A stretch of DNA of 64,000 bases from NCBI GenBank assembly GCA_963712745.1, contig CAVQJC010000017.1:64001-128000 (forward strand). The letters are read 5' to 3'. This stretch comes from an uncultured Chloroflexia bacterium. Lineage in GTDB: Bacteria > Chloroflexota > Limnocylindria > Limnocylindrales > CSP1-4. Position numbers and translations under genes: made by a program. Positions 39,737-57,419 of the stretch are shown here, one piece after another (the stretch's first letter is position 1; every line of letters begins with the position of its first letter). The notes beneath the pieces were generated by a model. It saw only the letters and a list, made by a program, of their open reading frames with translations. It made no database searches and was not told where the DNA came from.

Positions 39737-39738
39737 CC

Positions 39739-42369: not shown

Positions 42370-42445
42370 GGTTGATCATCCCCCTAGTGCACTGGCGACG
42401 TGTTTCATCCACGTCTGTGACCAGCTTGTGGTACACGAAGTCTCG

Positions 42446-43523: not shown

Positions 43524-43554
43524 GTGTCTCCCCCTGCACGCTGATGGCGCCCAG

Positions 43555-43611
43555 TCTGAACGTTCCTGTGAACGTTCATCTGAACGTTCAGATTGTCTCA
43601 CTGCCTGTCAA
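43555..43611 (-). promoter_or_regulatory. Triple LacI-type operator TGAACGTTCA with a TTGACA -35 box
   Basis: tgaacgttc at 43557, 43569 and 43581 (12-bp period); TTGACA on the minus strand at 43606-43611. Confidence 0.8.
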
Positions 43612-43802
43612 GTCGGGATACGCGCGTGATCGCACGCTTGTGCTGCGTGGCGTATCGGGCCTGGTTCGTAGTTGAGGCTCATGGGCGTGCGGCTCATGCA
43701 CGAGTTCGACGCCGATGGCCGCGAGTCGGCCCCGGGTCAGCTCATGAGGCGCACCATCTTGTCCGCCCCGCTCGCCAGGTGCACGATGTTGGCAACGATC
43801 AT

Positions 43803-43917
43803 CACCGGGTGCACGGGTGGGTCCATGGCACCAGCGGGACGGTCACGCTCGTGCACCGGGTGCACGGGTGGGTCCATGGCACCAGCGGGACGGTCACGCT
43901 CGTGCACCGGGTGCACG
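43803..43917. repeat. 51-bp tandem repeat x2.25
   Basis: caccgggtgcacgggtgggtccatggcaccagcgggacggtcacgctcgtg at 43803 and 43854, partial at 43905. Confidence 0.9.
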
Positions 43918-44040
43918 CTGGTCCCGATCGAATGGACATGGACACGGCTGGACCCCGGACAGGTGCCGGGGTCCAGCCTGGAGATTGGCCGGCGCCTTGC
44001 GGACGTCCGGCCTCGCCCCCCTACGGGAGCTTGGTGGCCG

Positions 44041-45123
44041 CTATTCGGCAGCCGGGCAGGCGAAGGTGTTGCACACCTCCTGCGCGTTCTCCGGCGCGAC
44101 CGTGTCGAACGGCAGAACCAGCCACAGCGGCGGGTTCACGCCGTCGATGAGCAGCGAGCGGGCCCAGTCGATGGCCTGTTGGCCGCCGGTGGGATAGACG
44201 AAGGTGACGCCGAGCCGGCCGTCGAGGACGGACATGATGCCGCCGTCAGGCGTGGGCAGAGCGTCGATGCCGATGAAGAGGACCTTGGAGGCATCGATGC
44301 CCGCGTCCTGGGCGGCGATGTAGGCGCCCTCGGCCATGGGGTCGTTGTGCCCGTAGAGGACATCGATATCGGGATGTGCCTGGAAGGCAGCCGCCGCGGA
44401 TGGGACAGCCTTCTCGCGGAGCCAGTCGGCGTTCTGCGAGAAGACGATGTTCTCCTCGGAGAGGCCGCCCTCGACCAGACCCATGCGGAAACCGTCACCG
44501 CGGTCCTTGGCCGGGGGAGCGCCCTCGAGGCCACGGATCTCGGCGATCTTGCAGGCCTCGCGGCCATTGTCTGCACACCACTGCGCAGCGTAGGCGCCGG
44601 CGCCGGCACCGATGGCTACGTTGTCGGCACCGATGAACATGGAGTAGTTGGGGTCGACCAGGTTGCGGTCAAGCACGATGACCGGGACGCAGGCTTCCCA
44701 GGCTTCCTTGACGATGTCGTTCAGGGGAGCAGCTTCGTTGGGGGAGATGACCAGCAGGTCGATGCCCTGGATGAGCAGGTTCTCGACATCACTCACCTGG
44801 TCGGCGTTATCCTGAGCGGCGTCCTGGAAGACGACCTCGATCTCAGGATAGGCATCGGCCGCAGCGGCAAGCTGGCTGTCCATGGCCTCGCGCCAGGGCT
44901 CAGCACGGTTGGCCTGCGACATGCCGATCACGTACTTGTCCTTGGCTTCCGGCATGGGGCAGTCTGCCGGCAGCGGTCCGTCCGCGCGCGCATCTTCCTT
45001 GACCGTGCCGCCACCGAGTTGGTCGTCGGTGTAGGGAGCCCAACCATCTGCGGCCAGGGCCGCTGATACGGAGCCCACTGTCAGCGCTGCTGTCAGCGCG
45101 CCGACGAGGATCTTCTTGGTCAT
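44041..45123 (-). CDS. Sugar ABC solute-binding protein
   Basis: Signal peptide MTKKILVG..; SQANRAEPWR, ISPNEA, IGADN, HNDPMA, GIDAL, YPTGG. Confidence 0.9.
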   Translation of the reverse strand: MTKKILVGALTAALTVGSVSAALAADGWAPYTDDQLGGGTVKEDARADGPLPADCPMPEAKDKYVIGMSQANRAEPWREAMDSQLAAAADAYPEIEVVFQDAAQDNADQVSDVENLLIQGIDLLVISPNEAAPLNDIVKEAWEACVPVIVLDRNLVDPNYSMFIGADNVAIGAGAGAYAAQWCADNGREACKIAEIRGLEGAPPAKDRGDGFRMGLVEGGLSEENIVFSQNADWLREKAVPSAAAAFQAHPDIDVLYGHNDPMAEGAYIAAQDAGIDASKVLFIGIDALPTPDGGIMSVLDGRLGVTFVYPTGGQQAIDWARSLLIDGVNPPLWLVLPFDTVAPENAQEVCNTFACPAAE

Positions 45124-45297
45124 TCGATGAGTCCTTTCAGAGTACGTGATGACTGGACCTTGGCTTGGGCTTCCTTTCGCCAGACACCCACCTCCTCCTG
45201 CGACTTGCCCGAGTGCCATGCTCGAGTGGTCACTGCACCCGGGGCGTTCGCTCGTCTGATGACCGCAGACCGTCGATGACGTCCTCTTGTGTTCCTC

Positions 45298-46848
45298 CTA
45301 GTCCTCCGAGATGCGCGGGCGCATCTGGTTCAGCGCCACGGCGCCGATCACGATCAATCCCTTGATCACCAGCTGCGCGTTGCTGTTGACGTTGTTGAGG
45401 CTGAGCATGTTGTCGAGGATGCCCAGGATGAACGCTCCTGCGACGGCCCCGGCGATGGTGCCTCTGCCACCCATGAGGCTGGCGCCTCCGATGACGACTG
45501 CCGCGATGGCGTTGAGCTCGTAGCCCATGGCCTCGTTGGGGCTGCCCTGGTCGAGCTGGGCCGCGTGCACGATACCGGCCATGGCCGCGAAGAAGGAACA
45601 GAGCATGAAGGCCGTGATCTTGATGCGCGAGACGGCCAGGCCGGAGAGTCGTGCGGCCACCTGGTTACCGCCGATGGCATAGAGATACCGTCCCCACGCC
45701 GAGTAGCGCAGGACCAGGGCCATGATGATGGCCACCGAGAACATGATGATCGCCGGCACCGGGAAGACCCCTTCGATGCGCTGGCCGATGACCTCGAACA
45801 TGGGGTCTGCGCCGCCCTCTCCATAGGAGATGGGCACGGCTATGTCGTTGGACCAGATGTGCGCGATGCCGCGCGCGATGCTCAGCATGGCCAGCGTGGT
45901 GATGAAGGACGGGACCCGGAAGCGCTCCGAGGTCCAGCCGTTGAACCAGCCGATGGCCAGGCCCAGGGCCAGGATGATCGTGACCGCCGCATACGAGGGC
46001 ACCAGGTCGCGCATGAGCAGGTAGGCCACCCCGGTCGCGGTGAGGGCCACGACCGAGCCGACCGACAGGTCGATGCCGCCGATGATGATGACCAGCAGCA
46101 TGCCCACCGCGAGGATGCCCGTCTCCGACACGTCGCGGGCGACGTTGCTCAGGTTGCGCTGGTTGAGGAACAGGATGCTGTCATCCCGTGTTGGCGAGAA
46201 GACGATAGCCAGCACGATGACGATGAAGAGCCCGAAGAATGGCTGGAAGCGGAAGATGGTCGAGACAGCCCGGGCCACGCGCGGGTTGTCGAGCCACCGA
46301 CCGACCGTATCGCGCAGGCGGGCGATGAGGCCCTTCTCGGTCGACGCTGCCGGCATGGATGCGGTGGACTGCATGGCCAAGTACTGCAACACCAGGACGG
46401 CCGAGGCGAAGCAGGCCAGCCAGAAGCCGATCGCGGTGAACTGGAGCAGCTGCACGGGCGAATCGCTGTCGTCGAGGAAGTAGAGCACGAAGTAGGCGAA
46501 GGTGATGAGCCCGCCCAGGGGCACCAGGGCGGACTGCCAGCGCCACTGCCAGCGCTCACTGGTCTTCAGGAAGAACCCGATACCGGCCACGAAGGCCCCG
46601 AGCGGGACGAGCAGCAAGCGCCAGCGCGTGTCCCCGAAGTACGCGCTCAGCTCCCCGGAGAGCGGGGGCGAGCCCGAGACGAGCAGGTTGATGGCGGTCG
46701 TGTCGACGCCCTCTTCGCTCATCCATGGCAGTGCGAAGAACCCGATCAGCACGGCGATGATGCCGCCGAGGCAGATGACGTCGACGGGCGTCAGGCGACT
46801 CCAGCTCCAGCCCTCTGCCGGTGTCGCGTCCCTGGCCGCTCCGCTCAT
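45298..46848 (-). CDS. Sugar ABC permease with an extra N-terminal membrane domain
   Basis: C-terminal GGIDLSVGS, VPSFITTL, GRYLYAIGGN, YELNAIAAVVIGG; about 190 extra residues containing TM segments. Confidence 0.88.
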   Translation of the reverse strand: MSGAARDATPAEGWSWSRLTPVDVICLGGIIAVLIGFFALPWMSEEGVDTTAINLLVSGSPPLSGELSAYFGDTRWRLLLVPLGAFVAGIGFFLKTSERWQWRWQSALVPLGGLITFAYFVLYFLDDSDSPVQLLQFTAIGFWLACFASAVLVLQYLAMQSTASMPAASTEKGLIARLRDTVGRWLDNPRVARAVSTIFRFQPFFGLFIVIVLAIVFSPTRDDSILFLNQRNLSNVARDVSETGILAVGMLLVIIIGGIDLSVGSVVALTATGVAYLLMRDLVPSYAAVTIILALGLAIGWFNGWTSERFRVPSFITTLAMLSIARGIAHIWSNDIAVPISYGEGGADPMFEVIGQRIEGVFPVPAIIMFSVAIIMALVLRYSAWGRYLYAIGGNQVAARLSGLAVSRIKITAFMLCSFFAAMAGIVHAAQLDQGSPNEAMGYELNAIAAVVIGGASLMGGRGTIAGAVAGAFILGILDNMLSLNNVNSNAQLVIKGLIVIGAVALNQMRPRISED

Positions 46849-48467
46849 GGGTTCGAACCCTGCGGCTGAGCCCTGGCCGTGAGGCTGTCGCTGCGTTTGT
46901 CGCTGAAACGGGTCGCCGCCTCCATGATGGCCTCCTGGTCGAACGAGTCCCGCTGGAACTCACCGGTCAGTCTTCCGTTGCACAGTACGTAGATGCGGTC
47001 GCAAACGGCCAACAGCTCGGGCATCTCGCTCGACACGAGCAGGAAGGCAGCACCGTTCTGGGCGAGCTCGCCGACCAGGTGGTATATCTCGGCCTTGGCT
47101 CCGACGTCGATGCCGCGGGTAGGCTCGTCCAGCAGGAACAGCACGATCTCGGACAGCAGGAACTTGCCGATGACCACCTTCTGCTGGTTCCCACCGCTGA
47201 GGCTGGCCACCATCGTGTCGATGGTGGGGGTCTTGATGTTCAGGTCATCGACGATGCGGCTGACGGCGCGTTTCTCAGACCGTTCGCTGATGATGCGGAA
47301 CCGGTTCGTGAACTGGCGCAATGAGGCCAGCGTGGCGTTCTCGGTGACCGACCGCTCCAGGACCAGGCTTTGCAGCTTGCGGTCCTCGGCCACGAGGCCC
47401 ACGCTATGGCGGATGGCGTCCTGGGGCGAAGCGAAGACGACCCTCTGTCCGTTGAGTGAGATGGTCCCTTTCAGGCTGTCCGGGGAATAGACGCCGAAGA
47501 TGGCTTCCAGCAGCTGCGTGCGTCCCGCGCCCATCAACCCGGCGACCCCGACGATCTCCCCCTCGCATGCCGTCACCGACACATCGTCCAGTACGTGCGT
47601 GCGGCCCTGCATGTAGGTCAGGCCCTCGACCCGCAGGACCTCGCGGCCCAGCTCCACCGGCACCTTGGGATAGAGGACGTCCAGGTCGCGTCCGACCATC
47701 ATGCTGATGAGTCGCTTGCGAGGCACCTCTCGCGGACTCGCGGTCCCGATGGTGTGTCCATCTCGAAGCACGGTCACGACATCAGCGACGGCGTAGACCT
47801 CGTCAAGCCGATGTGAGATGTAGACGACGGCGACGCCATGCTCGCGCAGACCGCGGATGACGCCGAAGAGGTACTCGACCTCGCTGTCGCTGAGGGCCGA
47901 TGTGGGCTCATCCATGACGATGATGCGCGTGTCGAGACTGAGGGCTTTGGCGATCTCGACGAGCTGCTGTTGGGAGACTCTCAGGCGGTCGATCGTCTTG
48001 TTGGTGTCGATCTCGAGACCCAGTTGCGCCATCAGTTCCTCGGCCGAGTGGCGCATGGCGCGCCGGTCGACCGTGCCCAGTCGGGTCTTGATCTCTCGGC
48101 CCAGGAAGATGTTCTCGAACACCGAGAGCTCAGGGACCAGGTTCAGTTCCTGGTGGATCATGGCCACTCCGCTGTCGATGGCCTCGCGTGTGTTGCGGAA
48201 TGCGACAGGCTCCCCGTCCAGCAGCATGTCACCGTCGTACTCGGTGTAGATCCCGCTCATGATCTTCATGAGGGTGGACTTGCCGGCTCCGTTCTCGCCG
48301 ACCAGGCCGTGGACCTGTTCGATATGGATGTCGAACGAGACATCCTCGAGCGCGACCACGCCGGGGAAGCGCTTGGTGATGTGTCGCATCCGCAGGAGCG
48401 CGGGTCGCTCCTCGGCATCTGTCGGATCGCGGCCTTGATGACTGCTGGTAGGCGTGGCTCCAGCCAT
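46845..48467 (-). CDS. Sugar ABC transporter ATP-binding protein (CUT2)
   Basis: GENGAGKST, MDEPTSAL, AEDRK, LSGGNQQK, LDEPTRGIDVG. Confidence 0.95.
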   Translation of the reverse strand: MAGATPTSSHQGRDPTDAEERPALLRMRHITKRFPGVVALEDVSFDIHIEQVHGLVGENGAGKSTLMKIMSGIYTEYDGDMLLDGEPVAFRNTREAIDSGVAMIHQELNLVPELSVFENIFLGREIKTRLGTVDRRAMRHSAEELMAQLGLEIDTNKTIDRLRVSQQQLVEIAKALSLDTRIIVMDEPTSALSDSEVEYLFGVIRGLREHGVAVVYISHRLDEVYAVADVVTVLRDGHTIGTASPREVPRKRLISMMVGRDLDVLYPKVPVELGREVLRVEGLTYMQGRTHVLDDVSVTACEGEIVGVAGLMGAGRTQLLEAIFGVYSPDSLKGTISLNGQRVVFASPQDAIRHSVGLVAEDRKLQSLVLERSVTENATLASLRQFTNRFRIISERSEKRAVSRIVDDLNIKTPTIDTMVASLSGGNQQKVVIGKFLLSEIVLFLLDEPTRGIDVGAKAEIYHLVGELAQNGAAFLLVSSEMPELLAVCDRIYVLCNGRLTGEFQRDSFDQEAIMEAATRFSDKRSDSLTARAQPQGSNP

Positions 48468-48855
48468 CAGCGAGACGACGGGCCGTCGGCCTGCACAGTC
48501 GACCGGCCTGACGTGGGACTCGCCAGCCGGCCGGGTGCACCGACGGCCTCTGCGGCGACGATGCCCATGCCCCGATACTACTCCTCGCCAGACCTCGCTC
48601 GCACGTCTCCGCCGATGTCGTCCTGCGCCACCGGCTTGCCTACCGGAGGCGTCGATCGCCCCGCCCCCGGCCGGGCCAGGGGCGGGGATGCTGGTGTACG
48701 CGTGGCTGGCCGTCCGCGACATCCTGCTGGCGCCGGAGGTGGAGCCGCTGACCTGCGAAGCCCCGGCATGATCGACCAGCGCGCCGGTCCCCCGACTTGG
48801 GGCCGTCTGGACCTAGCGACTGCGCTCGTCGCCCTTGAGCCTGACGCTCGGGGCC

Positions 48856-51800
48856 ATGGTCGAAAGCATCCACGTCAACCTGCACACGCACACCTCGCAC
48901 AGCGACGGTGCGCTCACGCCCGGCGCGCTGGCCCAGCGTCTGGCCGATGCCGGCGTGCGCTACGCCTCGCTCTGCGACCACGACACGGTCGCGGGCTGGC
49001 CTGCGTTCCGGGACGCGTTGGATGCACACGACATCCCCGCCCTCCCCGGCATCGAGCTGACGACCGTCCACGGCGGACGGCTGCTCCACCTCGTGGCCTA
49101 CGGGTTCGACCCCGACCATCCCGAGCTCCGCTCGACGCTGGGCTCGATGCGCGAGCGCCGGAGCGCCCATGCGCACGGCCTCGAGGCATCGCTCCGCGCT
49201 GCCCACGATTACGCCGCGGCTGACCAGGCCGTCCTCAGTGCCGCTCCCGATGGCCAGCTCGAGGTCGGGGCTGCCATCGCCCTGCTCCATCGTGCCGGCG
49301 GCCACGCGTTTCTGGCACATCCACTGGTCTACGAGCGCGAGATCAGCCTGCTCGAGCCGCTGGTGCTGGAGCTCAAGGGACTGGGCCTCGACGGCATCGA
49401 GGCGGTGTACGACGAGTTCAGCCCGGACGAGCAGACGGCGCTGCGAGAGCTTGCCCACGAGCACGACCTGCTGGTCAGCGCCGGGACCGACTACCACGGG
49501 ATCAAGGGCCTGGGCAGCTCGGCGCTCGGCATCGACATGCCCGGCGAGGACTGGGATCGGTTCCGCGCGGCCATGTTCGATGGCCACGCCCTGACTTCGG
49601 GCCGGCACGCCTCGGCGTCGGCCTCCGCTACCGGCACCCCGGCGTCATCCCCCGCCGAGAGCGGCGCCGGTCCGGGGCACGTGAGCCGGCGGCCGTTCGT
49701 CCTGCGCGTGGTCCTGCCGGCGCTCGCCGCGCTGGCCCTCTTCCTGGTCGCGGTCTGGGGACTGCTGCTGCCGTCCTTCGAGCAGACGCTCGTCGATCGC
49801 AAGCGCGAGCTGATCCGCGAGCTCACCAACTCGGCCTGGAGCGTGCTGGCGGCCTACCACGCCGACGAACAGGCTGGGACGCTGACGCGCGAGGAGGCAC
49901 AGGCTGCGGCCGCCAGCGTGGTGTCCGAGCTGCGCTACGGCGAGGCAGGGCTCGACTACTTCTGGATCCAGGACACCACGCCCACGATGGTCCGCCATCC
50001 CTATCGATCCGACCTCGACGGTGAGGACCTCAGCGGCTTCAAGGACCCGCGCGGCGTGCCTATCTTCGTCGAGTTCGCCGAGCTGGTCGAAGCCGAGGAC
50101 GAGGGCTACGTCGACTACGTCTGGCAGTGGTTCGACGACCCCGAACGCCTCGAACCCAAGCAGTCGTACGTCAAGGGCTTCGAGCCCTGGGGCTGGATCA
50201 TCGGCACCGGGCTGTACGTGGACGATGTGCAGGCGGAGATCGATCGCATCGAACGCGACGTCATCTTCGCGGCCTTGGGCATCTCCGGGCTCATCGCGCT
50301 GCTGCTGCTGTTCGTGCTGCAGCAGAGCCTGCGCATCGAGCGTCGTCGCGAGGAGGGCGTGGAGCGGCTGCGCGCTTCGAACGCCCGCTACCAGGCCCTG
50401 GCTGAAGCCACCTCCGAGGGCACGCTGCTGGTCATCGACGGCCGACTCCGCTATGCCAACCCCACCCTCCTCGAGATGCTCGGCTACACCGCGCGGCAGC
50501 TGGAGTTCCTCGAGCTCGACGACGTCATGCCTCGTGGGCAGGGCAACGACGAGCTGTGGACGGTACTGGACACGGGTGGGCTCGAGTCGGAGCTCATGGG
50601 GGCGGCGCGCGAGGGCGTGCTCACGCGTTCCGACGGGGATCCAGTGGAATGCCTGCTGACGCTGGAGCCGGTCGAGTTCGGTGGCCGGGCCGGGAACATC
50701 CTGCTCGCTCGCGACATCACGGCCTCGGGGGGCGCTCCGCGTGAGATCACAGTGCTTGGTACGGCGGTCGGCGTGTTCCGGTCAGCGGTCGCCCGGCGCG
50801 CCGTGTTCGTCGAGCTCAGTCCGGCCGGACGCGAGCTGCTGGCCCTGGTCACGGCCGGGGAGGGAGGACAGCTGGCCCTGGCCGACTGTTTCGCCGACCC
50901 CGCCGAGTTCGGCCAGGTGTACCGCCGGCTGGTCGAGCTCGGAGAGGTGCGAGATCACGTCCTGACCGTCGACACCGCACGTGGAGCTCGCTCGGTCTTG
51001 CTATCGGCCGCGCTCCTGCGCGACGACGAGGGGGAACCTGCCTGGATCGACGGACTGCTCGTCGATGTCACCGCGGCGCGCGGGGAAGCGGCCGACCGCG
51101 AGGTCCAGCAGCTCCGCGCCTCGCTGCTGTTCCTGCACGAGACCATCGAGGACTTGGGACAGGAGCCGCTGGTGGTACCGATGGGCTCGAGCCTCGATGC
51201 CATGGCCGCCAGCATGACCGAGCGCGGGGCTACGGCCGCGCTGGTGGCGAGCGAGTCGGGCCCGGCCATCGGCATCGTCACCGACGCGGACATCCGTGCG
51301 CGCGTGGTGGCGGAGGGAGCCGACCCGCGGGCGCGCGTGGAGACCGTCATGACCGCGCCGCTCATCCGCGTGCCTTCCAGTGCGCCCGTGTACGACGCCC
51401 TGTCGCGCATGGAGCTGGCCGGTGTTCGTCACCTCGTGGTGGAGGATGCGACCGGGGCCATCGTGCGCGTCGTCGACAAGGACGCGCTCATCCGCTCGCC
51501 GCGGTACGCGCCGCTCGTGCTGCTCCGAGACATCGCCCGTGCCAGGGATGTCGAGGAGGTCGCCCGTCGCTGCGAGCGCACGGTCTCGGCCGCGGCCAGC
51601 CTCTCCCAAAGCAGCGCTCGGCCACGCCACGTGAACAGCATGCTGACCTCGGTCTTCGACGCGGCCACCGTGCGCCTGGTCGAGCTGGCCATCGACGCGC
51701 TCGGGCCCGCACCCGCGCCATTCGCCTTCGTCGCCTTCGGCAGCCAGGGCCGGGGAGAAGTGCACCTCTCCTCCGACCAGGACCACGGGCTCATCTACGG

Positions 51801-52542
51801 ACCCGCTGACGGAGACGACGAGGCTCAGGCCGGATACTTCCTGGGTCTTGGCGAGCGAGTGTCGGCCGGCCTGGCCGCGGCCGGCTACCCCTACTGTCGC
51901 GGAAGGGTCATGGCCTCTGAGGCGGCCTGGTGCCGGTCGTTGCCCGGCTGGATCGAGACCTACGACGCGTGGCTCCGTCAGGCCCAGCCCCAGGACATCA
52001 CCGACCTCTCGGTATTCCTCGACTTCCGCCTGGTGGTGGGCGATGCGGGGCTGGCGGGGGAGCTGCGCCGCCACGTGCATTCGACGCTGCCCGAACAGCG
52101 CGGAGTGCAGTACCTGCTGGCCCGCAACGCGCTCACCTTCCGTCCGCCGCTGCGCCTGCCGGGCAACATCTACCTCGGCGGTGCCTCCGAGTCGAGCGGA
52201 CGCTTCGAGCTCAAGGACGCGCTGCAACCGATCGTCGCCTTCGCGCGGGTCGCTGCCGAACGCCACCAGGTGGTCGCCACGCATACGCTCGAGCGCATCG
52301 CGGCCCTGGCCGAACGCGACCTGCTGCAGTCCGGCAGCCGGGAGGAGGTCACCGATGCGTACGACTTCCTCATGGGTCTCCGCCTGGAAGCACAGCTGGC
52401 CGATGTGCGCGCCGGGCGAGAGCCTGCGAGCGTGGTCGAGCTCGCCGGGCTGACCTCCATCCAGCGCGAGCTGTTGCGCCAGGCGTTCGGCGCCATCGGC
52501 GAGGTCCAGAAGACCGCCGAGCGAGAGTTCCCCGAGGCCTGA
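48856..52542 (+). CDS. PHP-TM-sCache-TM-PAS-PAS-CBS-DUF294 nucleotidyltransferase multidomain protein
   Basis: PHP: LHTHTSHSDG, DHD, GIE, AHP, GTDYHG; Cache: DYFWI..HP..KDP.G..YVKGFEPWGWIIGTG; CBS pair; NT: GSQGRGE..SSDQDHG, GRVMAS. Confidence 0.85.
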   Translation: MVESIHVNLHTHTSHSDGALTPGALAQRLADAGVRYASLCDHDTVAGWPAFRDALDAHDIPALPGIELTTVHGGRLLHLVAYGFDPDHPELRSTLGSMRERRSAHAHGLEASLRAAHDYAAADQAVLSAAPDGQLEVGAAIALLHRAGGHAFLAHPLVYEREISLLEPLVLELKGLGLDGIEAVYDEFSPDEQTALRELAHEHDLLVSAGTDYHGIKGLGSSALGIDMPGEDWDRFRAAMFDGHALTSGRHASASASATGTPASSPAESGAGPGHVSRRPFVLRVVLPALAALALFLVAVWGLLLPSFEQTLVDRKRELIRELTNSAWSVLAAYHADEQAGTLTREEAQAAAASVVSELRYGEAGLDYFWIQDTTPTMVRHPYRSDLDGEDLSGFKDPRGVPIFVEFAELVEAEDEGYVDYVWQWFDDPERLEPKQSYVKGFEPWGWIIGTGLYVDDVQAEIDRIERDVIFAALGISGLIALLLLFVLQQSLRIERRREEGVERLRASNARYQALAEATSEGTLLVIDGRLRYANPTLLEMLGYTARQLEFLELDDVMPRGQGNDELWTVLDTGGLESELMGAAREGVLTRSDGDPVECLLTLEPVEFGGRAGNILLARDITASGGAPREITVLGTAVGVFRSAVARRAVFVELSPAGRELLALVTAGEGGQLALADCFADPAEFGQVYRRLVELGEVRDHVLTVDTARGARSVLLSAALLRDDEGEPAWIDGLLVDVTAARGEAADREVQQLRASLLFLHETIEDLGQEPLVVPMGSSLDAMAASMTERGATAALVASESGPAIGIVTDADIRARVVAEGADPRARVETVMTAPLIRVPSSAPVYDALSRMELAGVRHLVVEDATGAIVRVVDKDALIRSPRYAPLVLLRDIARARDVEEVARRCERTVSAAASLSQSSARPRHVNSMLTSVFDAATVRLVELAIDALGPAPAPFAFVAFGSQGRGEVHLSSDQDHGLIYGPADGDDEAQAGYFLGLGERVSAGLAAAGYPYCRGRVMASEAAWCRSLPGWIETYDAWLRQAQPQDITDLSVFLDFRLVVGDAGLAGELRRHVHSTLPEQRGVQYLLARNALTFRPPLRLPGNIYLGGASESSGRFELKDALQPIVAFARVAAERHQVVATHTLERIAALAERDLLQSGSREEVTDAYDFLMGLRLEAQLADVRAGREPASVVELAGLTSIQRELLRQAFGAIGEVQKTAEREFPEA

Positions 52543-52769: not shown

Positions 52770-54026
52770 ATGACAGCTGTCGCTGTCGCCACGCTGCCCT
52801 GGCGCCAGTTCGCCGGCTGGCGCATCGCCGCCCTGGCGACCATCACCGCGGCCCTGACCGGTCCCGGCCAGACCGTCGGTGTCTCGGTCTTCGTGGACCC
52901 CATGATCGGGGCGCTCGACCTCACGCGCTCCGAGCTGTCCACGGCCTACCTCATCGGCACGCTCATCGGTGCGTTCGCGCTGATGCCCGTGGGCCGCTGG
53001 ATCGACCAGGTCGGGACCCGACGTGCGATGACGCTCATCGGCCTGGCCTTTGGTGGCGGCCTGCTGGTCATGAGCGGCGTGCAGGGATTCGTGACGCTGG
53101 CCCTGGGCTTCACGCTCATCCGCTGGCTGGGACAGGGGTCGCTGCAGCTGGTGAGCACGCTCGCCATCACGCCCTGGTTCGAACGCCGGCGCGGCTTCGC
53201 CTTCGGGCTGTCCACGACGGCCACGGCGATGCTCATGTCGTTCACGCCCATCCTGCTCGGCATCGCCATCGGTCTCTTCGATTGGCGCATCGCGTGGGTC
53301 CTCGCGGCCTTCGCAGTCTGGCTCGTCGTCGTGCCCATCGCGCGCTTCGGCCTCATCGACCGACCATCCGACGTGGGCCAGTATGCCGACGGTGATCCTG
53401 CGCCCCATCCATCGGCGGAACCGCGACCGGTCGCCATCGCGCACACCAGGCGCGAGGCGCTTCGCCAGCCCCGGTTCTGGCTGCTGAGCTTCGTCATCGC
53501 CACCACGGCCATGCTCGGCACGGCTCTCAACTTCCACCAGATCTCGATCCTCGGCGACCAGGGCCTGACGGTCACCGAGGCTGCGGCCATGTTCCTGCCG
53601 CAGATCCTGGGCATGCTCGTGGCCGGACTGATCGTGGGGGCACTGGCCGACCGGGTCGCGGCCCGGTTCCTGCTGCTCGCGTCGATGGCGCTACTGGCGC
53701 TGAGCCTGGTGCTGGCCGCGTTCCTGTCGCCCGGTCCGATGATCCTGGTGTACGCCATCCTGCTCGGCGCCGCCGGTGGATCCAGCCGTCCGCTGATGGC
53801 CACGCTGCTGCCGCGCTGGTATGGGCTAGCGCATATCGGCTCCATCCAGGGCGTGGCCGCGCTGGTCGTGGTCGGGGCATCGTCGGCTGGGCCGGTGGTG
53901 CTCTCGCTGGCCAGCGACTCCATCGACGGCTACGGACCCGCCGCCCTCCTGCTGGTGGCCATGCCCGTGGTCATCGGCCTGGCTGCGCTGACCATCTCCG
54001 AGCCGGAGTTCAGGCCTCAACCGTAG
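52770..54026 (+). CDS. MFS transporter
   Basis: GPGQT, GRWIDQVGTR, WFERRRG, GALADR; about 12 TM segments. Confidence 0.9.
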   Translation: MTAVAVATLPWRQFAGWRIAALATITAALTGPGQTVGVSVFVDPMIGALDLTRSELSTAYLIGTLIGAFALMPVGRWIDQVGTRRAMTLIGLAFGGGLLVMSGVQGFVTLALGFTLIRWLGQGSLQLVSTLAITPWFERRRGFAFGLSTTATAMLMSFTPILLGIAIGLFDWRIAWVLAAFAVWLVVVPIARFGLIDRPSDVGQYADGDPAPHPSAEPRPVAIAHTRREALRQPRFWLLSFVIATTAMLGTALNFHQISILGDQGLTVTEAAAMFLPQILGMLVAGLIVGALADRVAARFLLLASMALLALSLVLAAFLSPGPMILVYAILLGAAGGSSRPLMATLLPRWYGLAHIGSIQGVAALVVVGASSAGPVVLSLASDSIDGYGPAALLLVAMPVVIGLAALTISEPEFRPQP

Positions 54027-54168: not shown

Positions 54169-56700
54169 GTGTTCGAATGGATCGCGAGCGGGTTCGCTCG
54201 CTTCACGACGCGGCGTCCGTGGCTCGCGATCATCGCGGTCCTCGCCGTCGCCATCGGCCTCAGTGCCATGGGTCGCCCGGAGATGTCCAACGACAGCTCC
54301 GAGTTCGCCCCCGACGACCCCGCCATCGCCGCGTCGGAGCGCATCGAGACGCTGTTCGGTGAGGATTCGACGGTCACGCCCCTGCAGATCGTGCTGGTCT
54401 CGGAGTCGGGAGACATCGTCACCACCGACGGTCTCGCGGCTGCGACCGGTGTGGCCGAGGCCATCGAGTCCGTCGAGATCGACGGCGTCCGCCTGGCCGA
54501 CAGGCTCGTCGAGCAGCCCGGCGTGGGCGCCATCACCTCATTCATGACGCCGGTGGACGCGGCTGTCGCCAGCGGCGCACCCATGCCCACCACCGACGCC
54601 GAGGTCAAGGCCATGGTCGAAGCCGGCCTGGAGCGTGCTCCGGCCGCTCAGGCCGAGCTGCTCTCGAGTCTCTTCGAGGGTGGACTCGAGTCGGGCAGCA
54701 CCGCCGCCAGCGGCCTGATGCTGGCGTTCGTGGAGAGCCCCGTCAACGCCGAGGAGTCGGCCCTGCTGGTCGAGCTCCAGGGTCAGCTCGATGCTGCTCT
54801 CCAGTCGGCCAGCTTCGCTGACGTCTCCACCCTCCCGTTCTCCATCCAGCTCATCCAGAAGGCCGGCGAGGACTCTGCCATCGAGATCCCTCTGCTGCTC
54901 TTCGCTGCCATCGGCATCATCGGCCTGGCGATGCTCTTCGTGTTCTGGACCAGTGCTCCCATGCGCCGCTTCCAGCGGGTTCGCCGCACGGCCGCCGACA
55001 CGCTCCTGGCCCTGCTCGTGGTCATCTTCGCCATCACCACCACCGACGGCGCGGCTGTCCTGCTCGGCCCAGGCGGGCTGGGCCTCATCGGCAACGTCTC
55101 CGGCCCCAGCTCGATCGTCTCCATCCTCCTGGTCGGCCTGGGCGTCGACTACGCCATCCATCTCAACTCTGCCTACCGCAAGGGTCTGGGCACCGGAGCG
55201 TCGGTCCAGACCGCGATGTCACGCAGCGTGCGCATCGTGGGCGGCGCCCTGGTCCTCTCTGCCCTTACCACGTCTTTCGGCTTCCTGACCAACGTCTTCG
55301 CGGGCTCGACCGCGCTGCTGACCTTCGGCGTCCTGGCCACCGTCGGCATCGTCGCTGCCTTCGTCTACGCCACCCTGCTCTTCCCTGCGGCCCGCGTCCT
55401 GCTCGACCGACGAGCGGCCTCGGCCGACAAGCTGCCGGCCGAGGCTTTCGCCACGTCCGAGGCCAGCTGGATCGACCGACTGACCGGTGCCACGGCGGTC
55501 ATCCCGCGGCGCGCGCCCTGGGCCGCCGTCGGCATCGCAGCGGTGCTGCTGATGGCCGGCATCTTCACCGCCACCAATCTCCGGTCGGGCTTCAGCTTCC
55601 TCGACTTCGTGCCTGAGGGCGCAGCCGTCCGAGCTGCGGCGGCTGAACTCGAAGACCGCTTCGACGGCGGCCTCGGCGAGACCACCAGCGTCATCGTCGA
55701 CGGCGACATCACCGAGCCTGCGGCCTGGAACGCCACGCTCGCCGCGACTGCCGCTGCCGGGTCGTTCGCGGACATCGTCGACATCGACGGCCAGCCGCTC
55801 GTCCAGTCACCGCAGGAACTCGTCGCTTCACTGACCACGGCCGGGTCGCCCGCGTTCGACCCGGCGGTCACGGCAGCGGTCGCGGCTGCGGGGCTCGACG
55901 CCTCGCTGGAGGCTTCTGCCGACGCGGACCTCGCTTCGGTGCTCGAGGCCGTGCGGTCGGTCGCGCCTGCCGAGCTCGCCGCGGTGTACACCTCTGAAGC
56001 GTCGCTCTACACCTTCACCAGCCAGGCCGGGACCGATGGCGCGCTCCAGCTCGCTGCCGATCTCGAGGCGGCGTTCGGCGCCGCATCCGTCGCGACCTCG
56101 CAGGAGATCATCGACGCCGCGGTGGTCGAAAGCACCTCGGTCACGCAGGTGCAGAGCCTCATCCTCGCGCTGCTCGGCGCCGGGGCACTGCTGATGCTGA
56201 ACTACTTCGTCTCTGACCGACGCCCGATGCTGGGCCTGCTCACCATCGTCCCGGTCGGTGGCGTGGTCATCCTGCTCTACGCCTTCATGGTCCTGGTGGG
56301 CATCGAGTTCGGTCCGGTCACGGCCACGCTGGCCGCGGTGGTCATCGGCGTCGGCGTCGACTACACCATCCACGTCACGCATCGGTTCCAGGAGTTCCGG
56401 CGCGAGGGCCTCGGCGTGGACCGGGCCATCACCGAGACGCTCGGCACCACCGGGTCGGCACTGCTGGCCTCGGCCGTCACGACCAGCCTTGGCTTCGCCA
56501 TCCTGACGCAGTCGTCGCTGATCCCCTTCCAGCAGCTGGGCTGGCTGACCCTCGTGGCCATCGCCGGTTCTGCCCTGGTCTCGGTGCTGGTGCTGCCCTC
56601 GATGCTGACCATCTACGCCCGCCGCTCCGAGCGCTCCTCCCAGGAGCCCGAGGGCGAGGCCATCCCGGTGCTCAGCGGCACCAGCCAGTCCCAGGCCTGA
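54169..56700 (+). CDS. MMPL/RND family transporter
   Basis: Two RND repeats: GLGVDYAIH and GVGVDYTIH, SALTTSFGF, SAVTTSLGF. Confidence 0.9.
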   Translation: MFEWIASGFARFTTRRPWLAIIAVLAVAIGLSAMGRPEMSNDSSEFAPDDPAIAASERIETLFGEDSTVTPLQIVLVSESGDIVTTDGLAAATGVAEAIESVEIDGVRLADRLVEQPGVGAITSFMTPVDAAVASGAPMPTTDAEVKAMVEAGLERAPAAQAELLSSLFEGGLESGSTAASGLMLAFVESPVNAEESALLVELQGQLDAALQSASFADVSTLPFSIQLIQKAGEDSAIEIPLLLFAAIGIIGLAMLFVFWTSAPMRRFQRVRRTAADTLLALLVVIFAITTTDGAAVLLGPGGLGLIGNVSGPSSIVSILLVGLGVDYAIHLNSAYRKGLGTGASVQTAMSRSVRIVGGALVLSALTTSFGFLTNVFAGSTALLTFGVLATVGIVAAFVYATLLFPAARVLLDRRAASADKLPAEAFATSEASWIDRLTGATAVIPRRAPWAAVGIAAVLLMAGIFTATNLRSGFSFLDFVPEGAAVRAAAAELEDRFDGGLGETTSVIVDGDITEPAAWNATLAATAAAGSFADIVDIDGQPLVQSPQELVASLTTAGSPAFDPAVTAAVAAAGLDASLEASADADLASVLEAVRSVAPAELAAVYTSEASLYTFTSQAGTDGALQLAADLEAAFGAASVATSQEIIDAAVVESTSVTQVQSLILALLGAGALLMLNYFVSDRRPMLGLLTIVPVGGVVILLYAFMVLVGIEFGPVTATLAAVVIGVGVDYTIHVTHRFQEFRREGLGVDRAITETLGTTGSALLASAVTTSLGFAILTQSSLIPFQQLGWLTLVAIAGSALVSVLVLPSMLTIYARRSERSSQEPEGEAIPVLSGTSQSQA

Positions 56701-56855: not shown

Positions 56856-57419
56856 GTGGACGAGCAGCTCGTTCGCCTGGCGCAGGGTGGGGACCAGGAG
56901 GCCTTTCGGTCGCTGGTCGTCGCTAACCATGCGCGCCTGCTTCGTGTGGCCCAGGGCGTACTGCGCGACCCGCATGTCGCCGAGGACGCGGTGCAGCAGG
57001 CCTTCCTCGATATCTGGCGGGACCTCCGCCGCCTGCGCGACGCCGGCAAGTTCGAAGGGTGGAGCTACAAGCTCCTGCTTCGGGTCTGCTATGCCGAGGC
57101 CAGGCGCATGCCGCGGTGGGTGCCCGACAGTCAGATCCCGGCAGCCGCCCGGCCGCGTGTCGGCGACGTCTTGGGCGTCGTCGTCGACCGTGACCAGCTC
57201 TCCCGGGGCTTCCAGCAACTCTCGACCGACCATCGGGCGGTCATCGTCCTGCGCTACCTCATGGACCTGTCTCCGGAGCAGGTCGCGGACGCGCTCGACA
57301 TCCCGCGTAAGACCGTTTACTCCCGCCTCGGCCGAGCCATGGACGCGCTTCGTGCCGCGCTCGAAGCCGAAGACCGATCCGCGATGCCCGTGCCGGTCAG
57401 CCAGGAGCCCGCCTCATGA
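56856..57419 (+). CDS. ECF sigma factor (paralog of 3677)
   Basis: GDQEAF, AEDAVQQAF..WRDL, FEGWSY, DHRAVIVL.Y, KTVYSRL. Confidence 0.92.
   Translation: MDEQLVRLAQGGDQEAFRSLVVANHARLLRVAQGVLRDPHVAEDAVQQAFLDIWRDLRRLRDAGKFEGWSYKLLLRVCYAEARRMPRWVPDSQIPAAARPRVGDVLGVVVDRDQLSRGFQQLSTDHRAVIVLRYLMDLSPEQVADALDIPRKTVYSRLGRAMDALRAALEAEDRSAMPVPVSQEPAS

Follow-up and report, generated by a model that had tools for sequence, protein, structure and literature searches.

A membrane-anchored Chloroflexota protein joins a PHP phosphoesterase domain, a predicted carboxylate-type Cache sensor and a GlnD/GlnE-like DUF294 module

The gene at positions 48856–52542 of the window (the whole 64,000-nucleotide stretch of DNA analysed here) encodes a real membrane protein that is widely conserved in Chloroflexota. 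Judged from sequence, its PHP phosphoesterase domain and its DUF294 nucleotidyltransferase have intact catalytic residues, which are conserved across the 63 relatives used to compute residue conservation. Outside the cell the protein probably detects acids of the acetate kind, and its PHP domain appears to stand in for the exonuclease that classical DUF294 genes have as a separate neighbour.

The ORF list placed the start at ATG 48856 and the stop codon at 52540–52542 of the plus strand. A TTG is also in frame at 48835; the consensus of the relatives' starts agrees with the ATG form. Every domain described in the initial annotation (PHP, Cache, PAS, CBS and DUF294) was found with Pfam and NCBIfam (Table 1). 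Among the matches listed, stored Pfam lists contained the Cache-PAS-CBS-DUF294 core in 120/120 homologues, with PHP also listed in 113 and DUF294_C in 119 of the 120 protein clusters. The fused gene was examined in 80 independently assembled Chloroflexota MAG loci with flanks of up to 10 kb. All 80 matched the query from residues 1–7 onward, i.e. from the PHP end, 67 held the complete full-length gene, and domain order and linker were constant throughout (80/80). The fused family forms a single clade. Four loci (L032, L033, L042 and L078) carry two ORFs instead of one gene, which is the one point in favour of a fusion created by assembly or gene calling. The single unbroken frame in the window and the match from the PHP end in 80/80 loci refute such an artefact for practical purposes; PHP in 113 of the 120 listed clusters and a high third-position GC along the whole ORF (0.88) also speak against it. 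We assign this explanation a negligible probability and regard the fusion, which might have proved absent from relatives, as genuine.

Table 1. Features of the fused gene and its downstream neighbours, in window coordinates
Feature	Residues	Position	Strand	Evidence
PHP-TM-sCache_2-TM-PAS-PAS-CBS-CBS-DUF294-DUF294_C gene	1228 aa plus stop	48856..52542	+	ORF list, translation, Pfam, NCBIfam
PHP phosphoesterase domain, RNase AM/Cv1693 type	~6-245	48871..49590	+	PDB phmmer, AF2 model, Foldseek
Ser/Ala/Gly/Pro-rich linker	~250-279	49603..49692	+	Translation; pLDDT below 50
Transmembrane segment 1	~281-307	49696..49776	+	Kyte-Doolittle scan; RR...R on N-terminal flank
Extracytoplasmic sCache_2	314-467	49795..50256	+	Pfam 2.4e-34
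Transmembrane segment 2	~469-491	50260..50328	+	Kyte-Doolittle scan; RIERRRE on C-terminal flank
PAS domain	~510-623	50383..50724	+	PAS_9 1e-9 (521-623), PAS_8, PAS_4, TIGR00229
Second, weaker PAS-like region	~640-745	50773..51090	+	PAS_4, two stretches; boundaries approximate
CBS pair	~764-885	51145..51510	+	Pfam CBS, two stretches
DUF294 nucleotidyltransferase core	912-1046	51589..51993	+	Pfam 6.3e-39
DUF294_C helical domain (HEPN-like, KNTase_C clan)	1086-1225	52111..52530	+	Pfam 8.3e-32
MFS transporter, downstream		52770..54026	+	Pfam MFS_1; NCBIfam NF049980
MMPL/HAE3-type RND transporter		54169..56700	+	Pfam MMPL plus sterol-sensing domain; NCBIfam HAE3 1.4e-47

The Pfam PHP model covered residues 9–72 with 28 bits, barely over its cut-off, and NCBIfam and PDB searches grouped all of the first 250 aa with RNase AM (YciV/TrpH) and the pAp phosphatase Cv1693, a 3',5'-nucleoside bisphosphate phosphatase. 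These two enzymes were the best matches in both sequence (phmmer, 7ug9 at 1e-23 and 2yb1 at 1e-21) and fold (Foldseek, 7ug9 at 2.8e-17, with 2yb1, 9etk and 3o0f); the AF2 model had a pLDDT of 85.6, low at residues 100–130. The likeness extends to the PHP barrel and the trinuclear metal site. The eight metal ligands reported for RNase AM, H13, D20, H45, E72, H83, H198, D255 and H257 (PMC9410882), align to H10, D17, H42, E67, H78, H155, D212 and H214, and H12 of the HxH motif is likewise there, in agreement with the earlier claim of an intact site. Across the 63 relatives each of these ligands is either invariant or conserved to at least 90%, and the domain is retained with all of them family-wide, down to about 41% identity. 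However, the domain scored far below the NCBIfam RNase AM/Cv1693 equivalog cut-offs (116 vs 400 and 106 vs 375) and, unlike those enzymes, is fused to a membrane receptor. Its insertion subdomain (~107–136, low-confidence in the model) is about 40 residues shorter than that of RNase AM, which is described as burying the first, 5'-phosphorylated nucleotide (R107, R110, R141, F161; PMC9410882); R110 and R201 are replaced by H105 and V158.

A Kyte-Doolittle scan detected exactly two hydrophobic segments, one on either side of the Cache domain, flanked by Arg-rich stretches where they face PHP and PAS. This pattern fits the predicted topology of the initial annotation, with PHP and PAS-CBS-DUF294 cytoplasmic and Cache outside. 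The best PDB matches of the sCache_2 domain were 5g4y (3.6e-32) and 4k08 (6.7e-32, with alignment). Its pocket residues, Y368, W370, H381, F404, Y421, W423 and K435, are invariant in the 63 relatives and identical to the PscD ligand contacts at 7/7 positions; acetate, glycolate, propionate and pyruvate are the PscD ligands given in the source of those contacts (PMC5062169). Single Cache domains had earlier been described as often binding small carboxylates, and the comparison places this one in the C2/C3-carboxylate type. Although PscD (5G4Y/5G4Z), Adeh_3718 (4K08) and McpP share this domain (E about 1e-32), the TM-Cache-TM layout and the seven contacts, the output here is PAS-CBS-nucleotidyltransferase, neither an MCP signalling domain nor a histidine kinase, and PHP occupies the other cytoplasmic end. 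Relatives gave PAS_4 or PAS_9 matches at the place equivalent to the second PAS-like region. The CBS pair matched 2ef7 and 2yzi in the PDB, and the AF2 model contains two CBS folds, with Foldseek CBS matches.

The DUF294 core was modelled with a pLDDT of 90.9. Its top Foldseek matches were the N and C domains of GlnE (1v4a at 5.8e-11, 3k7d) and DrrA (6yx5), all protein AMP-transferases. By hhalign it aligned over 233 columns with E. coli GlnD (E=2.8e-5) and over 218 columns with E. coli GlnE (2.6e-5), and poly(A) polymerase I and CCA enzyme reached a probability of 0.2%. By profile and model, then, the module resembles GlnE, GlnD and DrrA rather than poly(A) polymerase or CCA enzyme, as the earlier assignment to the GlnD/GlnE group had held. 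The motif G962-S-Q-G-R-G-E-V-H-L-S-S-D974-Q-D976 is invariant in the 63 relatives, as is the third carboxylate, D1056, slightly past the core; the motif had been recognized correctly as intact, except that the spacing from E to SDQD is one residue longer than first written. DUF294_C has been classified as HEPN-like, in the KNTase_C clan (PMC3710099), and gave a weak GlnD_UR_UTase match (PF08335, E=0.03). The window protein has in common with GlnD and GlnE a Pol-beta-type core, a similar helical domain behind it, the G-x-G-R-x-E...S-D-x-D motif, and significant profile and fold similarity. In these two enzymes, writer and eraser lie on one polypeptide under the control of small-molecule-sensing domains. 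The eraser is HD in GlnD (PII uridylyltransferase/uridylyl-removing enzyme) and a second nucleotidyltransferase domain in GlnE (glutamine synthetase adenylyltransferase), whereas the putative eraser here is PHP. The window protein also fails the GlnD/GlnE Pfam and NCBIfam models (GlnE equivalog, 16 bits where the cut-off is 625) and, unlike either enzyme, receives extracellular input via its Cache domain. A full-text literature search found no biochemical activity for any DUF294 protein.

The form described earlier as usual, cNMP-CBS-DUF294 beside a separate DEDDh exonuclease gene, was readily recovered: cNMP_binding was present in 52 of 62 sampled relatives of ~600 aa, and at 9/10 annotated classical loci (Alpha- and Gammaproteobacteria, Bacteroidota and Bacillota) an RNase_T gene lay within three genes. 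Six of the ten genes followed SSS symporters. These classical COG2905 pairs, e.g. P. alloputida PP_0354/PP_0353 and the P. aeruginosa DUF485-ActP-nucleotidyltransferase-exonuclease cluster, share with the window protein the CBS-DUF294-DUF294_C module at 25–35% identity, the same catalytic motif and an operon tie to monocarboxylate symporters (ActP plus DUF485, or VC_2705-type SSS plus DUF4212). In contrast, the window protein is membrane-bound, with TM-sCache_2-TM-PAS-PAS in place of the cNMP-binding domain and PHP fused at its N-terminus. A profile built on eight partner exonucleases, which recovered a non-seed partner at 3.8e-73, had no match at E≤10 in six frames across the 80 fused loci (1.42 Mb, flanks of up to 10 kb) or in the 64-kb window. 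Thus, within the tested loci the anticorrelation sought between PHP fusion and exonuclease neighbour held, and because 0/80 fused loci have an RNase_T neighbour, PHP appears to replace it. As the fused family is one clade, this exclusion counts as a single evolutionary event rather than 80. Domain scans covered 87 of the 150 best profile matches; leaving out three multi-CBS or CBS-less proteins, 84 DUF294 proteins remained, of which 12 carried PHP and none a fused RNase_T. PHP-less relatives include P0265, P0282 and P0304 (~970 aa, TM-sCache_2-TM-PAS-PAS-CBS-DUF294) and the Candidatus Raymondbacteria protein P0314 (858 aa, sCache_2-CBS-DUF294). P0282 is 35% identical to window residues 279–1225 and shares the Cache pocket motifs.

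An ActP/MctC-like monocarboxylate symporter gene was found near the fused gene at 67/80 Chloroflexota loci and a DUF485 (YjcH-like) gene at 63/80. Of the 70 loci with a called gene and 2 kb or more of upstream sequence, 57 had the symporter on the same strand, no more than 400 bp upstream. Across the 64-kb window there was no ActP, DUF485 or acs gene. The MFS protein downstream, put forward earlier as a candidate target, best matched the L-lactate MFS transporter SfMCT model (NF049980, 1.2e-30; 106 bits, below the cut-off of 320). Its homologues adjoin the fused gene only in WIN, L007, L008 and L010, i.e. 4/10 window-clade members, and at none of the 70 loci outside that clade. The MMPL homologue is likewise a clade-specific neighbour (WIN, L004, L006, L008, L009, L010 and L014; 7/10). 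We conclude that the family's conserved partner is DUF485 plus an ActP/MctC-like symporter rather than MFS, and that the window's clade lost this pair and has a lactate-type MFS (4/10) and MMPL (7/10) instead. The candidate MFS target thus fails as a family-wide partner; adjacency to a monocarboxylate transporter survives as a theme because the MFS protein best matches a lactate transporter model.

Genetic data bear on the classical pair. In P. alloputida the operon of PP_0353 (exonuclease) and PP_0354 (nucleotidyltransferase) is reported to show the strongest MxtR/ErdR dependence; deletion of the exonuclease impaired growth on pyruvate, as did deletion of yjcH or actP-I, and deletion of the nucleotidyltransferase did not (bioRxiv 10.64898/2026.09.07.749794). 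Both deletions reduced growth on propionate (same source), a same-direction effect that would be expected of a plain antagonistic pair only under additional assumptions. An 'RNase T domain protein' was cofit with the adjoining DUF4212-SSS lactate/alanine transporter in Shewanella and P. stutzeri, and the authors of that study speculated that symporter expression depends on the neighbour (bioRxiv 10.1101/072470). Which gene is cofit is our own reading, since Price et al. mislabel it 'COG2905 (RNAse T domain protein)'. The pyruvate and cofitness results fit an eraser required for keeping the transporter active.

Our preferred reading, held tentatively at a little under an even chance, is a carboxylate-gated membrane NMP writer (DUF294) with a PHP eraser, acting on monocarboxylate uptake. 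The outward sCache_2 would bind a C2/C3 carboxylate (acetate, glycolate, propionate or pyruvate class) and signal through TM2 to the PAS domains, and the CBS pair would add an input from inside the cell, probably adenine nucleotides. The PAS and CBS inputs would jointly set the balance of two cytoplasmic activities: transfer of NMP to a target by the GlnD/GlnE-like DUF294 module, and hydrolysis of the resulting phosphodiester by PHP, the job of the RNase_T-type exonuclease in classical systems. A precedent for PHP standing in for a DEDDh enzyme is the reported ability of RNase AM to substitute for Orn in vivo (PMC11528712). The target would most likely belong to the monocarboxylate uptake system, being in most relatives the ActP/MctC-like symporter or DUF485 partner encoded directly upstream and in the window's clade perhaps the downstream lactate-type MFS transporter. 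The mark would probably be inhibitory and its removal activating. Here we infer the ligand, a protein rather than RNA as target, the nucleotidylated protein as the product from which PHP removes NMP, the eraser role of PHP and the direction of regulation. This writer/eraser reading is plausible and agrees with the Pseudomonas and Shewanella genetics.

Known substrates of RNase AM and Cv1693 are pAp and short 5'-phosphorylated oligonucleotides, in which 3'-phosphoesters are cut, rather than protein-NMP bonds. Because the PHP domain is of this type, nearest to them in sequence and fold, RNA or an oligonucleotide as substrate is a live, though rather unlikely, rival: DUF294 would extend RNA 3' ends or make a short oligonucleotide, an RNase AM-type PHP (5'-3' exonuclease/nanoRNase) would remove the product, the part played by RNase_T in classical systems, and expression of the transporter operon would come under carboxylate-responsive, post-transcriptional control. 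Two nuclease families in the same position, the classical partner being Pfam RNase_T, could equally mean a nucleic-acid product; RNase AM is reported to substitute in vivo for the DEDDh enzyme Orn, the two being interchangeable as diribonucleases (PMC11528712). The genetics are compatible with RNA or protein targets alike, and the speculation on symporter expression (bioRxiv 10.1101/072470) suits RNA. However, DUF294 matches GlnD, GlnE and DrrA by profile and model, its C-terminal domain is of the GlnD/GlnE helical type, the PHP insertion is shortened with both arginine equivalents replaced, and membrane tethering of both enzymes favours a membrane-protein target over mRNA.

Writer and degrader on one sensor protein are the usual layout of second-messenger turnover proteins, which favours a further reading, the initial annotation's own alternative. 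By analogy with GGDEF-EAL proteins, DUF294 would respond to carboxylate by making a dinucleotide or oligonucleotide (linear or cyclic) or a nucleotidylated metabolite, which PHP would then break down. Degradation of dinucleotides such as pGpG is reported both for PHP enzymes of the RNase AM type and for DEDDh enzymes (PMC11528712). We consider this signalling reading improbable: the DUF294 fold matches listed include no cGAS/DncV-like or other signalling nucleotidyltransferase, a candidate receptor was not evident in the neighbourhoods examined, and the tight operon tie to a single type of transporter points to a target close by, not to a diffusible signal. Similarly small is the probability that PHP is a housekeeping pAp phosphatase/nanoRNase, or a regulatory or scaffolding domain, fused by chance, with Chloroflexota gene order explaining the missing RNase_T. 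Consistent with this, the exclusion rests on one clade and flanks of up to 10 kb, and Cache-DUF294 forms lacking PHP exist. However, family-wide retention of PHP and its ligands and the fixed order and linker argue against such a chance fusion, and the N-terminus of a membrane receptor is an odd site for a housekeeping enzyme.

New observations are the complete set of PscD contacts in the Cache pocket, the position of the fused gene behind DUF485 and ActP/MctC-like symporter genes in most relatives with loss of this pair in the window's clade, the lack of an RNase_T neighbour at the fused loci examined, and the likeness of the DUF294 module to GlnE, GlnD and DrrA. On our preferred reading, the window protein would be a single-polypeptide, membrane-anchored form of the widespread, uncharacterised COG2905 nucleotidyltransferase (CBS-DUF294) and exonuclease pair that accompanies monocarboxylate symporters in many bacteria.

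The sensor gene encodes a single protein of 1228 residues with the order PHP-TM-sCache_2-TM-PAS-PAS-CBS-CBS-DUF294-DUF294_C (table). Both DUF294 (PF03445) and DUF294_C (PF10335) exceeded the Pfam gathering scores, and a CBS pair was located directly N-terminal of DUF294 by Pfam and as two CBS folds in the structural model. A hydropathy scan identified exactly two hydrophobic segments, which bracket the Cache domain and have Arg-rich flanks towards PHP and towards PAS. This arrangement fits a predicted topology in which the Cache domain is extracytoplasmic, while PHP and the PAS-CBS-DUF294 region are in the cytoplasm. The domain layout and two-TM topology proposed in the initial annotation were borne out by the Pfam, NCBIfam and PDB searches and by the hydropathy scan. 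The transferase motif that it reported was also present, although with a spacing one residue short; the actual motif is G-S-Q-G-R-G-E-V-H-L-S-S-D-Q-D.

Coordinates of the features discussed in the text (L numbers are fetched genomic loci)
Feature	Location	Evidence or remark
Sensor ORF	window 48856-52542 (+)	ATG at 48856, stop at 52540-52542
PHP	sensor residues 9-72	Pfam, 28 bits
Hydrophobic segments	sensor residues about 281-307 and 469-491	hydropathy scan
sCache_2	sensor residues 314-467	Pfam, 2.4e-34
PAS	sensor residues 510-623	Pfam, 1e-9
Second PAS_4 stretch		Pfam
CBS	two stretches	Pfam, 2.3e-9
DUF294	sensor residues 912-1046	Pfam, 6.3e-39; 133.4 bits, cut-off 21
DUF294_C	sensor residues 1086-1225	Pfam, 8.3e-32; 110.4 bits, cut-off 22.5
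Sensor gene as two ORFs	L032 10001-13665; L033 2419-6124; L042 10001-13703; L078 6230-9929	
Symporter with insertion	L019 3410-5305	insertion at residues ~184-356, between two conserved halves
DUF485 protein	L013 7777-8100	conserved N-terminal tail
Hypothetical protein after the classical DUF294 gene	L001 7385-7882; L084 7404-7985; L085 7372-7890; L086 7416-7946; L090 8400-8888	no Pfam match in L001, L084, L085
Exonuclease-less classical locus (Skermanella sp. TT6 plasmid)	L084 3358-10201	DUF4212, SSS symporter, DUF294, hypothetical, then HAMP-MCP chemoreceptor
ORFs of high third-position GC (many)	window 1-34158, e.g. 2368-3780, 4234-5067, 15363-17432, 21967-23837	without Pfam family
SRPBCC/polyketide-cyclase-like genes (three)	window 10195-11695, 26355-26840	
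HisKA_3 kinase and LuxR-type regulator	window 12388-14972	
Phytochelatin-synthase-like gene	window 29876-30571	
Sugar-type ABC transporter gene sets (two)	window 36925-48722 (-)	divergent and upstream of the sensor gene
ECF-type sigma factor	window 56856-57419	downstream of the MMPL gene
264-aa ORF	window 57416-58210	without Pfam match; may encode an anti-sigma factor
AbiEii-like nucleotidyltransferase	window 58398-59219 (-)	weak match

Among 5.8 billion proteins searched by word index, 459 matched the sensor protein. Among the 120 matches listed (51-100% identity), the Cache-PAS-CBS-DUF294 core was present in all 120, PHP in 113 and DUF294_C in 119; most were 1214-1277 aa long, four rows were shorter or truncated, and the source names, where given, were Chloroflexota. 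A genome scan with one genome per GTDB species gave 581 pattern matches, with a relative encoded in 538. The best 80 of these 538 loci were all from Chloroflexota MAGs, and in each the match started within the first seven residues of the query. An assembly artefact, for which the initial annotation had suggested an architecture search among relatives as a check, was rejected because the fusion recurs in the listed homologues and in 80/80 of the best loci. In 63 full-length members, the PHP ligands H10, H12, D17, H42, E67, H78, H155, D212 and H214 and the NTase residues G962, S963, G965, R966, E968, D974, Q975, D976 and D1056 were invariant or at least 90% conserved. The sensor gene was present as two ORFs in four of the 80 loci, one encoding PHP-Cache-PAS (~610-780 aa) and the other CBS-DUF294-DUF294_C (~515-630 aa); L033 and L042 share an N-terminal ORF size of 687 aa, their C-terminal ORFs measuring 629 and 632 aa. 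The two-ORF state could reflect either MAG sequencing frameshifts or a form that is truly split.

The nearest solved relatives of the Cache domain were PscD (5G4Y, 3.6e-32) and Adeh_3718 (4K08, 6.7e-32). PscD binds glycolate, acetate, propionate and pyruvate, and its propionate contacts, Y90, W92, H103, F126, Y143, W145 and K156, are reported to be identical in other C2/C3-carboxylate sensors (PMC5062169). These residues aligned to Y368, W370, H381, F404, Y421, W423 and K435 of the sensor protein with seven of seven identical, and all seven were invariant in the family (63 relatives aligned). Thus, the protein shares with PscD-type sensors both an sCache_2 domain between two TM helices and the full seven-residue pocket. 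Because the PscD contacts are identical and invariant, we infer that the ligand is probably a C2/C3 carboxylate.

The AF2 model of residues 760-1228 had a pLDDT of 90.9, and its best Foldseek matches in the PDB were the N-terminal domain of GlnE (1v4a, 5.8e-11), the C-terminal domain of GlnE (3k7d, 5e-10) and DrrA (6yx5_B, 9.6e-9), at a TM score of about 0.5, with CBS proteins next in the ranking. In hhalign comparisons the module profile matched E. coli GlnD (E=2.8e-5, 233 columns) and E. coli GlnE (E=2.6e-5, 218 columns), whereas poly(A) polymerase I and CCA enzyme each reached a probability of only 0.2%. The Pol-beta NTase motif, G-x-G-(R)-x-E followed by D-x-D and a third acidic residue, was present with G962, S963, G965, R966, E968, D974, D976 and D1056 invariant, and aligned with the motifs of GlnD and GlnE. 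DUF294_C has been grouped with the C-terminal helical domains of GlnD and GlnE (PMC3710099). The kinship of DUF294 to GlnD/GlnE given in the initial annotation was therefore upheld by Foldseek and hhalign. The module resembles GlnD, GlnE and DrrA in its NTase motif and NTase-helical fold but misses the curated GlnD/GlnE cut-offs (PF08335, E=0.03, 14.8 bits against 21; GlnE equivalog NF010707, 16 bits against 625). Taken together, the fold, the profiles and the DUF294_C grouping suggest that the transferase sides with the protein nucleotidyltransferases, NMP transfer to a protein side chain being its putative activity.

The first ~250 residues of the sensor protein were identified as a PHP barrel of the RNase AM/Cv1693 type by NCBIfam and PDB sequence searches (NF041577, 1.9e-33; NF047791, 1.9e-30; 7ug9, 1e-23; 2yb1, 1e-21), with scores below the equivalog cut-offs (115.8 bits against 400 for NF041577 and 106.1 bits against 375 for NF047791). 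Foldseek searches with the PHP model (pLDDT 85.6) ranked RNase AM first (7ug9, 2.8e-17), followed by Cv1693, V. cholerae RNase AM, BAD_1165 and then the PHP domains of Pol III alpha. Each of the eight metal ligands listed for RNase AM (PMC9410882) had its own counterpart among the conserved PHP residues, and the trinuclear-metal ligand set is complete. In RNase AM an insertion subdomain buries the 5'-phosphorylated first nucleotide via R107, R110, R141 and F161, and R201 is at the scissile phosphate (PMC9410882). In the sensor protein the corresponding insertion lacks about 40 residues and was modelled at low pLDDT, query residues 122-136 lying opposite RNase AM residues 127-179; R107 is kept as R102, but R110 and R201 are replaced by H105 and V158, respectively. 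The shortened insertion and these two replacements point to a substrate pocket that has probably changed relative to RNase AM. A complex prediction for PHP (residues 1-250) and the CBS-DUF294 module (residues 760-1228), with alignments supplied, gave a score of 0.00, which speaks neither for nor against contact.

The classical form is a soluble cNMP-CBS-DUF294 nucleotidyltransferase (COG2905) with a separate RNase_T (DEDDh) exonuclease gene nearby. A DUF294-module profile search of 1.84 billion representatives (50% identity clusters) gave 5349 matches at E<=1e-30; counts at weak E-values may be inflated by tandem-CBS proteins. The Pfam architectures of 87 of the best 150 matches comprised 62 proteins of 567-654 aa, all with CBS, DUF294 and DUF294_C; 12 of the PHP-Cache-PAS-CBS-DUF294 form; four PHP-less Cache forms (P0265, P0282, P0304 and P0314); three rows truncated within the Cache domain or just ahead of it (P0210, P0262 and P0345); three PAS-CBS-DUF294 forms; one CBS-DUF294 form of 677 aa; and two multi-CBS proteins without DUF294. 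No fused RNase_T was found among the 87. P0282 aligned to residues 279-1225 of the sensor protein with 35% identity. P0210 was rejected as a PHP-less form: a 1238-aa protein falls into its 90% cluster, so P0210 is probably a truncated call. P0216 (2354 aa) and P0333 (1855 aa) were rejected as DUF294 proteins, being false positives that scored only via 13-18 tandem CBS domains; they also contain a PB1 domain. The very long P0252 (3237 aa) also scored high against the profile.

A tblastn search of plasmid records with the CBS-DUF294 module gave 63 records, of which 10 from nine genera were examined (two Vibrio species, Paracoccus, Hymenobacter, Skermanella, Tateyamaria, Shinella, P. aeruginosa, Cytobacillus and Aestuarium). 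An RNase_T-type 3'-5' exonuclease was encoded within three genes in all but the Skermanella locus, and an SSS symporter with DUF4212 or DUF485 was directly upstream in six of the 10; acs was also present in the Paracoccus and Aestuarium loci. The annotated P. aeruginosa record has the order DUF485, ActP, cNMP/CBS protein, 3'-5' exonuclease. The form considered usual in the initial annotation, cNMP-CBS-DUF294 beside an exonuclease, was thus recovered, with cNMP_binding in 52 of the 62 sampled proteins and an RNase_T neighbour in 9/10 loci. Classical operons of alphaproteobacteria also contain a conserved hypothetical protein of 162-193 aa right after the DUF294 gene, and the exonucleases of these operons are long proteins of 469-695 aa whose N-terminal extension is unannotated; the Paracoccus operon additionally has a response regulator in between.

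As phmmer searches with three single partner exonucleases were insensitive, the seeds barely matching each other, we used a profile of eight exonucleases, which recovered the non-seed ninth (Aestuarium) at 3.8e-73. Six-frame searches with this profile gave no match at E<=10 in the 80 fused loci (1.42 Mb) or in the 64-kb window. At least 3 kb was available on both sides in 49 of the 80 loci, and the comparison of 0/49 with 9/10 gives p=8e-10 when taken naively; because the fused family is one clade, the exclusion amounts to one replacement event. The proposed anticorrelation of PHP fusion and exonuclease was therefore observed (0/80 fused against 9/10 classical loci) for one clade and for flanks only; absence is established for the flanks of the fused loci and the window, and a partner may lie elsewhere in these genomes. 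In vivo, RNase AM can take over from the DEDDh enzyme Orn (PMC11528712), so that a PHP enzyme standing in for a DEDDh exonuclease has precedent. In contrast to the classical protein, the sensor protein has no N-terminal cNMP-binding domain (no PF00027 match), and the window lacks both an adjacent RNase_T/DEDDh gene and a monocarboxylate SSS symporter with its small subunit.

When ORFs were called in the 80 fused loci and clustered, two upstream genes were found to be conserved. One encodes a sodium:solute symporter of ~632 aa whose best NCBIfam models were the monocarboxylate transporters MctC (9.4e-133) and ActP (6.8e-116), both under equivalog cut-offs. Compared with P. aeruginosa ActP, to which it is 39-46% identical, it has an insertion of ~140 aa, seen in 67 symporter loci, for which no Pfam domain was reported. 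The other encodes a membrane protein of ~100 aa assigned to DUF485 (YjcH family) on the basis of PF04341 matches in 43/43 members (E<=0.01, best 1.4e-8, near the gathering score); BLASTP against P. aeruginosa DUF485 was not significant. The N-terminal tail before the first TM helix of these proteins was strongly conserved in the 43-locus alignment (consensus MLHEPATPAGKDPAGPYK; H5, P7, D14 and K20 invariant, Y19 near-invariant), and that it might be a regulatory site is pure speculation. An antisense ORF was called in L017, so that ORF-based gene counts are one too low at this locus; six-frame searches, which are independent of the ORF calls, found the symporter in 67/80 and DUF485 in 63/80 loci. 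Of the 13 loci without a symporter, three extend no more than 200 bp upstream of the gene, one is L082 and nine belong to the window's clade. In a FastTree analysis of 67 full-length proteins this clade (10 rows, support 100) was nested among symporter-linked clades, a position indicating that the symporter linkage is ancestral and was lost in the lineage of the window.

No ActP-like, DUF485 or acs gene was found within the 64-kb window, and only one weak AMP-binding-enzyme match was found in the 80 loci as evidence of acs near fused genes. An MFS transporter adjoins the sensor gene in four of the 10 members of the window's clade, its best NCBIfam model being the L-lactate transporter SfMCT (1.2e-30, below cut-off), and an MMPL/HAE3 transporter is a neighbour in seven. 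At 4/81 loci, counting the window, the MFS gene was rejected as a family-wide conserved partner; its proposed role as a target stands as a candidate within this clade only. For the sensor in the window itself, the lactate-type MFS is a candidate local partner. The divergent sugar-type ABC sets in the window, consisting of periplasmic binding proteins, BPD_transp_2 permeases, double ABC ATPases and a LacI-family regulator, are not conserved beside the sensor gene in relatives. The ECF-type sigma factor gene overlaps the 264-aa ORF.

These results are most economically read as a switch that controls monocarboxylate uptake by carboxylate-gated nucleotidylation. The external acid would be sensed by Cache, with internal inputs added by PAS and CBS, and DUF294 would write an NMP mark, probably inhibitory, on a component of the transporter system. 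This mark would be removed by PHP or, in classical systems, by RNase_T; both are candidate erasers because reversal of an R-O-NMP linkage calls for the chemistry of both families, cleavage of a phosphodiester with release of 5'-NMP. We regard this protein writer/eraser model as tentative, although it may well be correct. Published genetics bear on it. The P. aeruginosa genes PA3232-PA3235, including actP, are induced ~16-fold on propionate under MxtR/ErdR control (bioRxiv 10.1101/2022.08.25.505149). In P. alloputida the operon of PP_0353 (RNase T-like) and PP_0354 (cNMP, two CBS, NTase) was the most strongly MxtR/ErdR-dependent, and deletion of either gene led to poorer growth on propionate; growth on pyruvate was impaired by deletion of the exonuclease, yjcH or actP-I but not by deletion of the NTase (bioRxiv 10.64898/2026.09.07.749794). 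Those authors called the function of the pair unclear and suggested protein modification (bioRxiv 10.64898/2026.09.07.749794). Price et al. found that DUF4212 and its SSS partner are required on D,L-lactate or D-alanine and that they are cofit with a gene next to them, labelled 'COG2905 (RNAse T domain protein)' (bioRxiv 10.1101/072470); we take this gene to be the exonuclease gene, the published label being ambiguous.

Loss of the exonuclease thus resembles loss of the transporter while loss of the NTase does not, which fits a writer/eraser switch. The same deletion pattern also fits RNA tailing and trimming, i.e. an RNA or oligonucleotide substrate for the enzyme pair, but the fold and profile data of the DUF294 module argue against this and we consider it unlikely. 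That the pair makes and destroys a small nucleotide signal is quite improbable, and we find it highly doubtful that PHP is functionally unrelated to the transferase. A broader form of the writer/eraser model would make the sensor the prototype of a new class of signalling output, in which a transmembrane receptor senses an acetate-type carboxylate outside the cell and itself attaches a nucleotidyl mark to a transporter and removes it again, without kinase, second messenger or transcription factor, PHP being the de-nucleotidylase and the DEDDh 'exonuclease' acting likewise in classical soluble systems. This generalization is doubtful at present.

Neither the PHP-Cache-PAS-CBS-DUF294 architecture nor a biochemical function of DUF294 was found in the full-text literature searched, which leaves out most subscription journals. 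We rate the architecture as new and its kind as known but uncharacterised. DUF294/COG2905 proteins are very common and occur in acetate, propionate, pyruvate and lactate uptake operons of Pseudomonas, Vibrio, Shewanella, Paracoccus and others. The Chloroflexota fusion offers handles absent from the classical form: a sensor domain whose ligand class is readable from its pocket, a transferase hard-wired to a second hydrolase fold, which would set the partner's bond type as a phosphodiester releasing 5'-NMP, and membrane tethering next to a transporter gene. With these three handles, a family of unknown function becomes open to a small number of direct biochemical tests. Should the prototype reading be true, the DUF294/COG2905 family, with its 5349 representative clusters, would gain its first function, and the known enzymes that reverse AMPylation or UMPylation of proteins would be extended by two folds new to this role. 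The writer/eraser model, if correct, would amount to a new post-translational mode of nutrient-uptake control in bacteria.
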